A DNA stretch of 64,000 nucleotides, taken from Promethearchaeota archaeon (GTDB taxonomy: Archaea > Asgardarchaeota > Lokiarchaeia > Sigyniarchaeales > SOKP01). Below are positions 1,035 to 3,097 of this stretch, piece after piece (position 1 is the stretch's first letter; each line of letters begins with the position of its first letter). The notes beneath the pieces were generated by a model. It saw only the letters and a program-made list of their open reading frames with translations, did no database searches and had not been told where the DNA came from. Both the position numbers and the translations under genes were made by a program. The DNA is taken from NCBI GenBank assembly GCA_019894975.1, contig JAGXNO010000015.1, positions 4,645 to 68,644 on the forward strand, given 5' to 3'.

Positions 1035-3097
1035 TTAGATATCTAACACATTAACTTCGTCAAAATGACTGATAATGAATTTTTTTCGAGCTTTCACTTC
1101 TTTACCCATGAGCTTTGTAAACATTAGATCATTTTCTAAATAGTCTTCATAAGTAACTTTCTTTAGTTTCCTAGTATCGCGATTCATGGTGGTCACATAG
1201 AGCTCTTCTGCGTTCATTTCACCAAGGCCTTTATATCTTTGAGTTCGAATTGAACCCGTGTCCTTAAGATTATGTTTTGTTTGTAATCCTTGAAAAAAGT
1301 CTTCTTTTTCTTTATCTGTGAAGACATATTTTTGGTCTTTCTTATAACTAACTTTATATAAGGGAGGACAGGCAATATAGAGATGTCCTGCATCTATAAG
1401 TGGACGCATATATCTAAAGAAGAATGTAAGTAGGAGTGTCTCAATGTGAAATCCGTCAATGTCAGCATCACACATAATTACTACCTTATGGTAGCGCAGT
1501 TTACTTAAATCAAAGTTTTCTTCGACTTCTTCACCTTCTTCAGTTTCACCATTGGTTCCATTTAAATCATTTTCCTCTTGGAATCCTACTCCTAGAGCTT
1601 TGATAATAGATTGGATTTCATTGTTTTGCAATATCTTGTCTAAACGGGCTTTTTCTACGTTTAAAATCTTACCCCTAAGAGGAAGAATTGCCTGATAAGT
1701 TCTATCTCTTCCTTGTTTAGCAGAACCACCTGCTGAATTTCCTTCAACTATAAATATTTCTGAATCTTCAGGTTTATTCGAAGAACAATCAGCAAGTTTG
1801 CCCGGCATCCTTGCACCATCTAATGCAGATTTTCTACGGATTAGAGATCTCGCTTTTTGGGCAGCTTCACGAGCTATTTTCGCATTAATAGTTTTTAAAA
1901 TAATCCTTTTAGCTATTTGTGGGTGTTCTTCTAGAAATTGAGTTAACTTATCAGTAACCATTTGACTTATTATCTGCCGAATCTCAGGGTTACCTAACTT
2001 AATTTTAGTTTGGCTTTCAAATTGAGGATCAGGAAGTTTAACCGAAATTACTGCTGAAAGTCCTTCTCGTGTATCAGTCCCACTTAATACGTGATCTTTA
2101 TACTTCTTTTCCATATAATTTTCTATATAAGAATTAAAACCCCTTGTTAAGGCCGATTTAAACCCGGTTAAATGAGTGCCTCCCTCGATAGTGTTGATTG
2201 TGTTGGCATAAGAGAGAATATTTGTATGATATCCTTGGTTGTATTGAGCAGCAACTTCACACATTATCGTAGAGCCATCTTCATCTTCAGTTGAATCGCT
2301 TATATAAATAACGTCATTATGTAAAGGCTGTTTGTCTTTATTTAAATAGCTTACAAATTCCTTTAATCCGCCTTCATAATGAAATTCTTCTATTTCATCC
2401 TTAAATTTATCATGAAGTTCAAACCTTGCGTGTGGGTTAAGAAATGCAAGCTCTCGCATCCTAGCAGTAATAGTATGGGCACTGAATATCGGTTCATTAG
2501 GATCAAAATCAAAAATAGAATTATCTGGATAAAATTTGATTTTTGTGTATGTCTTTTCGGTTTTGATCTCTGTTGTTTCTGCATCAGTTACCTTTTTGCC
2601 TTTAGAAAATTTTTGTTTGTAGAGCAGACCATCACGACAGACCTCAACTTCCATCCATTCAGTTAAAGCGTTCACAACTGAGAGTCCAACGCCATGTAAG
2701 CCACCAGAAATTTTATAACTTTTACTGTCAAATTTTCCTCCAGCATGTAAATGTTCCATGATTACTTCAAGCGCAGGTCTCTTAAATTCGGGATGTTCAT
2801 CAATAGGGATGCCACGACCATTATCAGATACTTGAACTGTATTATCTTTATAGAGGGTTACCTTTATCTCGTCGGCATACCCTCCCATTGCTTCATCTAC
2901 AGAGTTATCAAGTACCTCGAAAATAAGATGGTGAAGCCCCCTCTTGCTTTGGTCCCCTACATACATTGCGGGCCTCTTTCTTTGTCGACCTAGCGCGAAT
3001 CGCGCATCTCCTTCATTCTTTATGAAGATAAGTTTACGCCGTCGAGCCCTTTTAGTACTTGAATATCCTCTGCATCATATCCGCTTTTCTCAACCAT
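1035..3097 (-). CDS. gyrB: DNA gyrase subunit B, split: exon 1 3097-3035 (21 codons) and exon 2 2981-1035; joined product 669 aa
   Basis: GHKL motifs (EVLDNSVDE, DNGRGIP, HAGGKF, SGGLHGVG) and TOPRIM motifs (EGNSAGG, PLRGKILN, DADIDG). The missing N-terminus [21 protein letters not shown] is in another frame upstream and joins to RKRPAMYVG. Confidence 0.93.
2982..3034 (-). other. Candidate 53-nt bulge-helix-bulge (BHB) intron in gyrB mRNA
   Basis: Insert AACUUAUCUUCAUAAAGAAUGAAGGAGAUGCGCGAUUCGCGCUAGGUCGACAA. Bulges UA|A and AA|A, central helix GGCG/CGAC with one mismatch, inner helix ACUUA/UAGGU. Removal restores the frame. Confidence 0.8.

Follow-up and report, generated by a model that had tools for sequence, protein, structure and literature searches.

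How can a gene yield a complete protein when its reading frame is broken after 21 codons? The question is raised by gyrB, the gene for DNA gyrase subunit B, which lies on the minus strand of a 64,000-nucleotide stretch of DNA from a Promethearchaeota archaeon (contig JAGXNO010000015.1, positions 4,645 to 68,644; the whole stretch is here called the window). A 53-nt insert separates the codons for the GyrB N-terminal arm from the remainder of the gene. We consider it highly probable that this insert constitutes an intron of the bulge-helix-bulge (BHB) kind that is removed from the gyrB mRNA, the splicing itself being a step that we infer by comparing related sequences. The gene is divided as follows.

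3035–3097, minus strand: exon 1 of gyrB, 21 codons from the ATG at 3097-3095, corresponding to the GyrB N-terminal arm.
2982–3034, minus strand: the intron, 53 nt, for which the cut pairs 3035-2983 and 3033-2981 would be equivalent.
1035–2981, minus strand: exon 2 of gyrB, through to the stop codon; the start used by gene callers is the ATG at 2966.

Exon 1 ends with GGC GTA at 3035, and exon 2 opens with AGA AAG AGG CCC GCA ATG at 2981. Reading through the insert shifts the frame and meets a UAA at 3022-3020, the fifth codon past exon 1. The predicted spliced junction joins GGCGUA to AGAAAGAGG (GGCGUA^AGAAAG; here and below ^ marks a junction or predicted cut). Gene callers recorded a truncated 643-aa open reading frame (ORF) that starts at the internal ATG (1035–2966) and is recognized as DNA gyrase subunit B (864 bits for NF004189, whose cut-off is 740; E 4.7e-260). 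Because this match begins only at position 30 of the 641 positions of the GyrB profile, the ORF as called lacks the N-terminal arm; it also falls below the gyrB equivalog cut-off (828.9 against 882.4 bits). An earlier reading of the same DNA, made from the letters alone (the sequence-only reading), had placed the insert at 3034-2982 with these exon boundaries, this UAA and this internal-Met ORF, all of which are borne out by the window sequence and its ORF list. It had also held that ORF callers miss exon 1, and the truncated 643-aa form is indeed the one on record.

The same interruption occurs in relatives. We searched 54 genomes of the genus (g1); 43 have a gyrB match, and in each of these we read the 200 bases lying upstream of MY(I/V)G. 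An insert is found at the same codon boundary in 14 species-level genomes, comprising 12 of these 43 and two of 40 sampled from the sister genus g14. It measures 53 nt in 13 of the 14 and 52 nt in the other (eleven and one, respectively, within g1). All 12 genus alleles have an ATG-started exon 1 of 21-23 codons ending G-L-(D/E)-G-V and an exon 2 starting R-x-R-P-A-M-Y. The remaining 31 genus alleles are uninterrupted and read GL(D/E)GVR(K/R)RP, and 11 loci from other families of the same order (L020-L030) are likewise uninterrupted. A scan with an exact IUPAC pattern of the intron over 185,579 species genomes, one genome each, returned 12 places, all at this gyrB site; ten are identical to the g1 loci and two are new, both in g14. 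With an intron-only model (R2), the two g14 genomes were the sole additional carriers among 151 genomes of the class, and the insert was not found in 27 other sampled genera of the class. The insert is present in fourteen independent assemblies and is therefore no assembly artefact, a possibility that the sequence-only reading had left to be checked. The host it had named, an Asgard archaeon, agrees with the record titles of the carriers, which are Promethearchaeota or other Asgard metagenome-assembled genomes (Promethearchaeota being placed within the kingdom Promethearchaeati).

Exon 1 varies as coding sequence does. Over its last 15 codons in the 14 alleles, variable sites number 2/2/15 in codon positions 1/2/3, with a mean dN of 0.053, a mean dS of 0.479 and a dN/dS of about 0.11. 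Judged by this pattern, exon 1 is under purifying selection, the signature of a translated sequence. The read-through frame stops inside the insert in 12 of 12 genus alleles, mostly five codons past exon 1, so that exon 1 can be useful only if it is joined to exon 2. A full-length, intronless protein of 677 aa (P0002), which belongs to the same 90% cluster as the truncated ORF, has the junction exactly as predicted. This protein aligns to solved GyrB chains from residue 3, with exon 1 corresponding to approximately residues 3-19, which makes exon 1 the coding sequence of the N-terminal arm. Numbered as in 6rks_B, the junction falls at V19^R20, with M25 as the internal Met. Dimerisation of the GyrB ATPase requires this arm.

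The insert and its flanks are predicted to form a BHB from the following elements, in the order of the transcript.

3044–3049, minus strand: 5' strand (GGGCUC) of the outer exon-side helix h, pairing with 2970-2976 in both the minimum free energy (MFE) fold and the constrained fold.
3037–3040, minus strand: 5' strand (GGCG) of the central 4-bp helix H, at the end of exon 1, with one G.A in the window's own genome.
3034–3036, minus strand: 5' bulge UA^A, with the predicted cut after 3035.
3029–3033, minus strand: 5' strand (ACUUA) of the intron-side helix h', pairing with 2988-2992 (UAGGU).
3011–3027, minus strand: variable intron hairpin CUUCAU-AAAGA-AUGAAG, 81% paired, with compensatory changes at two pairs.
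2993–3005, minus strand: conserved G+C-rich intron hairpin GCGCG-AUU-CGCGC, with three invariant pairs.
2984–2987, minus strand: 3' strand (CGAC) of the central helix H, on the intron side.
2981–2983, minus strand: 3' bulge AA^A, with the predicted cut after 2982; an irregular exon-side helix follows.
2970–2976, minus strand: 3' strand (GAGGCCC) of the outer exon-side helix h, in the codons of R-P.

Comparison among alleles recovers this arrangement. RNAalifold, run unguided on 12 alleles (98 columns), returned the 4-bp helix (columns 20-23/73-76), a 3-nt bulge, the 5-bp helix (27-31/68-72) and the G+C hairpin. Over all 14 alleles 91.4% of cells pair, against 32.5-42.9% when the partners are slid by 1-3 columns, and double-sided changes occur in 13 cells, a number reached by none of 500 shuffles. 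The central helix is paired in 98.2% of cells and its variants (G-C/G-U and C-G/U-G) keep the pairing, the sole exception being the G.A of the window's own allele. The 5-bp intron helix is 97.1% paired and has compensatory changes at two pairs; columns 30/69, for example, are C-G in seven alleles, U-A in six and U-G in one. The single base missing from the 52-nt allele falls in the loop of the variable hairpin, and the closing pair of the G+C hairpin changes from G-C to A-U in one allele. The exon 1-exon 2 helix (GGGC.../...GCCC and neighbours) has 4-9 bp in 14 of 14 constrained folds, in all of which a mismatch or small internal loop lies between it and the 3' bulge. Folds constrained to the BHB lie 0-4.1 kcal/mol above the MFE, six of the 14 within 0.3. 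As modelled, then, the canonical form is kept by the central helix, the 5' bulge and the intron helix but not by the exon-side helix, whose irregularity makes the motif relaxed (HBh'-like) and not canonical hBHBh'.

If each allele is cut after the second bulge base, the exons join in frame as G-V^R-x-R-P in 14 of 14. The 52-nt allele is included, and from its length it follows that no reading frame is preserved through the insert. Owing to the runs of A, the pair of cuts can slide by one base either way with the product unchanged. A cut after the second base of each bulge is also the rule for cbf5 introns in the accessible text of PMC2738675. These comparisons support several proposals that had been made from the window alone: the individual pairings (a central helix with three of four pairs plus a G.A, a 5-bp h', the two bulges and GGGCUC/GAG(G)CCC) are all present in the sequence, the second-bulge-base rule does give the in-frame junction, and exon 1 is the N-terminal arm by the alignment of P0002 to solved chains. 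The sequence-only reading had further suggested that decay of exon 1 or loss of pairing among orthologs would point to a dying gene, and had recommended aligning Asgard gyrB 5' ends; that alignment shows presence or absence at one site, no decay of exon 1, and pairing conserved with compensatory changes across the 14 alleles.

Synonymous sites may also bear on the fold. The duplex between exon 1 and exon 2 has a median energy of -12.7 kcal/mol in the 12 genus intron alleles and -7.4 in the 31 intronless ones (Mann-Whitney p 3e-6, a value that overstates the difference because the rows are related), which suggests that synonymous codon choice is adapted to the fold in intron alleles. The Gly codon that contributes to the 5' strand of the central helix is GGC/GGU in 14 of 14 intron-bearing alleles, and in our own reading of the alignment the codon at that position is GGA/GGG in 18 of the 31 intronless alleles; such a bias would fit selection on synonymous sites for pairing. 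No conserved C/D-box motifs were found in the intron, where they were searched for by eye only.

The genome encodes the enzymes that splicing would require. Two ORFs, of 202 and 200 aa, match PF01974 (tRNA-intron endonuclease catalytic domain) above the cut-off. The first of these EndA paralogues is closest to chain B of 3p1z and 3ajv (E 1e-34), and the second is more divergent in the PDB comparison. The pair fits a two-subunit (alpha-beta)2 EndA, and the ligase RtcB is also encoded (E 6e-169), so that the genes for both enzymes invoked by the earlier reading, EndA and RtcB, are present. Asgard archaea are described as having an (alpha-beta)2 EndA with a loop linked to broad substrate specificity in the available part of PMC5829648, and the available part of a preprint (10.64898/2026.10.13.758758) counts two EndA paralogues in 44 of 60 Asgard genomes.

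Together these features suggest how a full-length protein could be made. The end of exon 1 (GGCG) would pair with the 3' end of the intron, giving a 4-bp helix between two 3-nt bulges on opposite strands, with the 5-bp intron helix and the exon 1-exon 2 helix holding the BHB in place. A two-subunit EndA would cut after the second base of each bulge, and RtcB would join the exons into an mRNA for full-length GyrB with its N-terminal arm. The second product would be the free 53-nt intron, probably circular. Cleavage and ligation in the cell are the steps that we infer.

Presence of the intron is at odds with the history of the gene body. A tree of exon-2 proteins (45 rows) requires 11 changes to explain where the intron is present; well-supported branches force at least 8 of these, and intron presence clusters no more than shuffled labels do; an approximately unbiased (AU) test rejects a single clade of intron-bearing alleles (p 0.0012). 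When the tree is made from the 130 bases upstream of the junction, leaving the intron out, only 4 changes are needed (none of 500 shuffles is as low) and nine intron-bearing alleles form a supported clade, this tree being built from a short alignment (139 columns) by a quick method. The intron-bearing allele G041 and the intronless G003 share 89-96% identity in exon 2 taken as six 300-nt windows (94-96% in windows one to three) and 73% upstream, the high identity starting about 45 nt into exon 2. Both the tree conflict and this break in identity indicate that a 5' cassette has been exchanged between lineages by recombination. To judge from these alignments, the intron is inherited with the cassette (upstream region, exon 1, the intron and roughly the first 45 nt of exon 2), moved by homologous recombination across species of the family. 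Within the window's own clade the upstream regions of intron-bearing and intronless alleles are alike, and there the intron seems to have been precisely lost or gained in place. One further feature belongs to the cassette.

3123–3139, minus strand: upstream element, GATAGATTTACCTTTAC-like, about 30-45 nt 5' of the exon-1 ATG, common to intron-bearing 5' cassettes and a putative promoter.

Two observations concern the same region. A 355-nt contig from RNA run X2, derived from a related organism, fits the window up to 2969 and then carries 26 letters that do not fit; position 2969 is where the variable 5' cassette starts. In L052, L016, L004 and L013 the sequence CACATATATTTAAA(T/A)GTG stands some 190 nt before the MY(I/V)G codon. 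It is kept in intron-bearing and intronless 5' regions with diverged surroundings, and could be a promoter or regulatory site.

Several points weigh against splicing of this insert as we describe it. The window's own motif is the weakest of the 14: it has the G.A in its central helix, its MFE register is shifted by one, and its BHB-constrained fold, 4.1 kcal/mol above the MFE, is the worst of the set. The exon-side helix near the 3' bulge is irregular in all alleles, with columns 19/80 A.G in most rows. Fourteen related sequences can beat shuffles without any structure, which limits the covariation controls. Residues that we take to be the catalytic Tyr, His and Lys are kept in the first EndA paralogue and lacking in the second, an assignment made by eye. 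Transcript data add no junction. A search of RNA runs listed 8, none with half of the sampled words, and we examined four; at 88% likeness they give contigs on parts of exon 2 only, none across 2982-3034, with zero depth in bins 3006-3200 and no joint reported at the intron. We conclude that these runs speak neither for nor against splicing. As to the fold, the window's region taken alone has a z of -1.5, and 17 of 200 shuffles fold as well; the own sequence by itself is weak evidence, raised above chance by comparison with the 13 other alleles. In that comparison the slid-partner control and the independent RNAalifold prediction matter more than the shuffle statistic.

A different account of the same insert is that it is pseudogenising or neutral, with translation of GyrB now starting at the internal Met (2966), the N-terminal arm lost and exon 1 a relic. 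The internal ATG does open a clean 643-aa ORF, the one that gene callers recorded, and in the window's own genome a GAGG stands 8 nt upstream of it. This GAGG is not conserved, however, other alleles having CGACGCCCAGCAATG there, and since the internal Met is the conserved M of RPxMY in all GyrBs, its presence is no mark of a start. A relic would also be hard to reconcile with the codon-position pattern of exon 1 in the 14 alleles (2/2/15; dN/dS 0.11), with an ATG start retained in 12 of 12 genus alleles examined, and with helices of the insert that covary. We regard this account as very improbable. Nor does the sequence favour ribosomes that hop over the 53 nt with no cutting of the RNA, as in phage T4 gene 60. 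Gene 60 encodes a topoisomerase subunit, and its bypass uses identical take-off and landing codons with a stop directly after the take-off codon; a gap of about 50 nt that is structured and interrupts the coding part of a type II topoisomerase gene resembles it. In the present alleles, by comparison, matched take-off and landing codons occur in 0 of 14: the codon before the gap is GUA or GUU, and the last three intron bases are CAA, UAG, UAA, CAG or UAU, with no GUN in any of the 14. The stop lies five codons past the take-off codon and is not adjacent to it, and the covarying, conserved part is a BHB geometry linking both ends of the gap, which hopping leaves unexplained. Bypass thus appears extremely unlikely.

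The insert might also be some other element, such as a self-cleaving or self-splicing RNA, a miniature mobile element or a site of excision at the DNA level. It is strongly structured and patchy, and it moves between lineages, as such an element might. Yet no Rfam family matches within the insert (Rfam 15, E up to 10); the two matches obtained are chance snoRNA-like ones outside the insert (E 4.6 and 9.8, far under gathering scores). A group I or II intron would need more than 53 nt. There is one copy per genome: the DNA search and two intron models found no further copy in the own genome or the genus, and the exact pattern occurs in gyrB only. The spread is explained by cassette exchange and not by transposition. 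We give this class of explanations a minimal probability. Removal of a BHB intron from the gyrB mRNA therefore stays the reading that we prefer.

A more far-reaching version would have the gyrB intron as the visible part of a wider, endonuclease-dependent splicing of Asgard mRNAs, with functions of their own for the conserved G+C hairpin and possibly for the excised circular RNA. If true, splicing would tie gyrase synthesis to EndA/RtcB activity or to RNA folding, and the cassette would for that reason be kept across species as an alternative allele. We hold this version to be doubtful. In the window's own genome a DNA search found no further copies of the intron, and models R1 (which includes the exon flanks) and R2 match gyrB only. 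Across the 54 genus genomes R2 recovers the 12 gyrB introns, with E no higher than 1.6e-16, plus 9 weak matches (E 0.005-0.77), of which 6 were inspected and taken to be chance matches. L105, L106, L109 and L110 lie inside intact ORFs, L109 and L110 being one gene in two genomes; L107 and L108 have no open frame across the match and nothing suggesting split exons. A de novo BHB scan of the own genome, requiring strict geometry and fused frames, gave 3547 candidates against 3473-3583 in six slid controls, with no excess at any score threshold or exon-1 length. The own gyrB intron itself fails the strict helix rule, and the scan neither detects nor excludes further mRNA introns. In another family of the order, one gyrB match (G030:C17:392532-394580) has a gap of about 190 nt between residues 134 and 140. 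Since a single open frame of 727 aa runs through it, this is an insertion that keeps the frame of the ATPase domain and not a BHB-type interruption.

The neighbourhood of the gene includes its partner subunit.

3–986, minus strand: gyrA, directly downstream of gyrB and leaving the window (TIGR01063, E 1.8e-152).

Upstream of gyrB are a dihydropteroate synthase (window 3392-4255, minus strand; TIGR01496, E 4.7e-56) and, further upstream, a sulfatase-like protein (window 4332-5720, minus strand). The dihydropteroate synthase adjoins gyrB in many, not all, members of the genus, regardless of intron state. The genome, rated 95% complete, has 16 tRNA genes by ARAGORN, 6 of them with introns; two tRNAs lie in the window (34761-34835 and 48173-48243). 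According to the accessible text of the preprint cited above (10.64898/2026.10.13.758758), the Asgard lineage is rich in non-canonical tRNA introns, and many tRNA genes of this genome are probably hidden by such introns, in line with heavily interrupted tRNA genes. ARAGORN also calls a tRNA-SeC (anticodon tca) at coordinates 65491-65583 (complement) of the own genome, which hints at candidate selenocysteine use.

In the available part of PMC7714728, the crenarchaeal cbf5 intron is the only BHB intron reported in archaeal mRNA besides a 5'-UTR case in Haloferax. The sequence-only reading had described the mRNA examples as essentially crenarchaeal cbf5; that statement agrees with this source once the Haloferax case is added. 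Our full-text literature search, made mainly outside the subscription journals, turned up no description of a BHB intron from gyrB or any Asgard mRNA. The gyrB intron is very probably the second case of a BHB mRNA intron in a coding region and the first from Asgard archaea, and its cassette-like inheritance is unusual. If true, an EndA of relaxed specificity can support mRNA introns in a lineage other than Crenarchaeota, the one that matters most for the origin of eukaryotes. The intron sits in an essential gene of DNA topology, and it has led to an annotation error, a GyrB recorded without its N-terminal arm. Intron gain, loss, exchange and regulation could be tested on closely related alleles with and without the intron, whose gene bodies are in some cases 94-96% identical.

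The nearest known counterpart is the BHB intron in the pre-mRNA of crenarchaeal cbf5 (pseudouridine synthase), which was reportedly described in Watanabe 2002 and Yoshinari 2006 and is treated in Yokobori 2009 (PMC2738675). Both introns are short, lie in a coding region and have a mostly relaxed BHB, with predicted cuts between the second and third bulge bases and hosts that have hetero-oligomeric EndA; both show a patchy, lineage-specific presence and were missed by gene prediction, as far as the accessible text of PMC2738675 allows the comparison. That text has the cbf5 splicing demonstrated by cDNA, whereas splicing of gyrB is predicted from sequence, and its authors discuss loss of the cbf5 intron through cDNA, whereas the patchiness in gyrB is tied to recombination of the 5' cassette. 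The gene and the phylum (Promethearchaeota/Asgard) also differ. The gyrB site at codon 21/22 leaves a plausible truncated ORF, unlike the cbf5 intron, which is at the codon of the catalytic Asp. The cbf5 gene of the window's own genome was checked and has no intron, TIGR00425 positions 5-319 being matched without a stop.

An analogy is found in HAC1/XBP1, a stress-regulated, non-spliceosomal form of mRNA splicing in which IRE1 cleaves and RtcB or Trl1 ligates. There, as proposed for gyrB, a protein enzyme cuts a short structured mRNA intron, a tRNA ligase joins the exons and the encoded protein changes. The nuclease (IRE1), the stem-loop motif and the stress regulation are different, and the analogy implies no homology.

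Another counterpart is HVO_1309 of Haloferax volcanii, an mRNA that, as gyrB would, gives the archaeal splicing endonuclease a substrate other than tRNA and rRNA. In the available text of PMC7714728 its splicing is verified in vivo and in vitro; its intron differs in lying in an untranslated leader, where no frame is interrupted, in a euryarchaeal host with another type of EndA. The BHB introns of tRNA and rRNA (Marck and Grosjean 2003, as cited in the accessible literature) share with the gyrB intron the 3-nt bulges, the 4-bp helix and h'; they also have an exon-side helix h, which in gyrB is irregular. The enzymes presumed to act on them are identical to those proposed here for gyrB.

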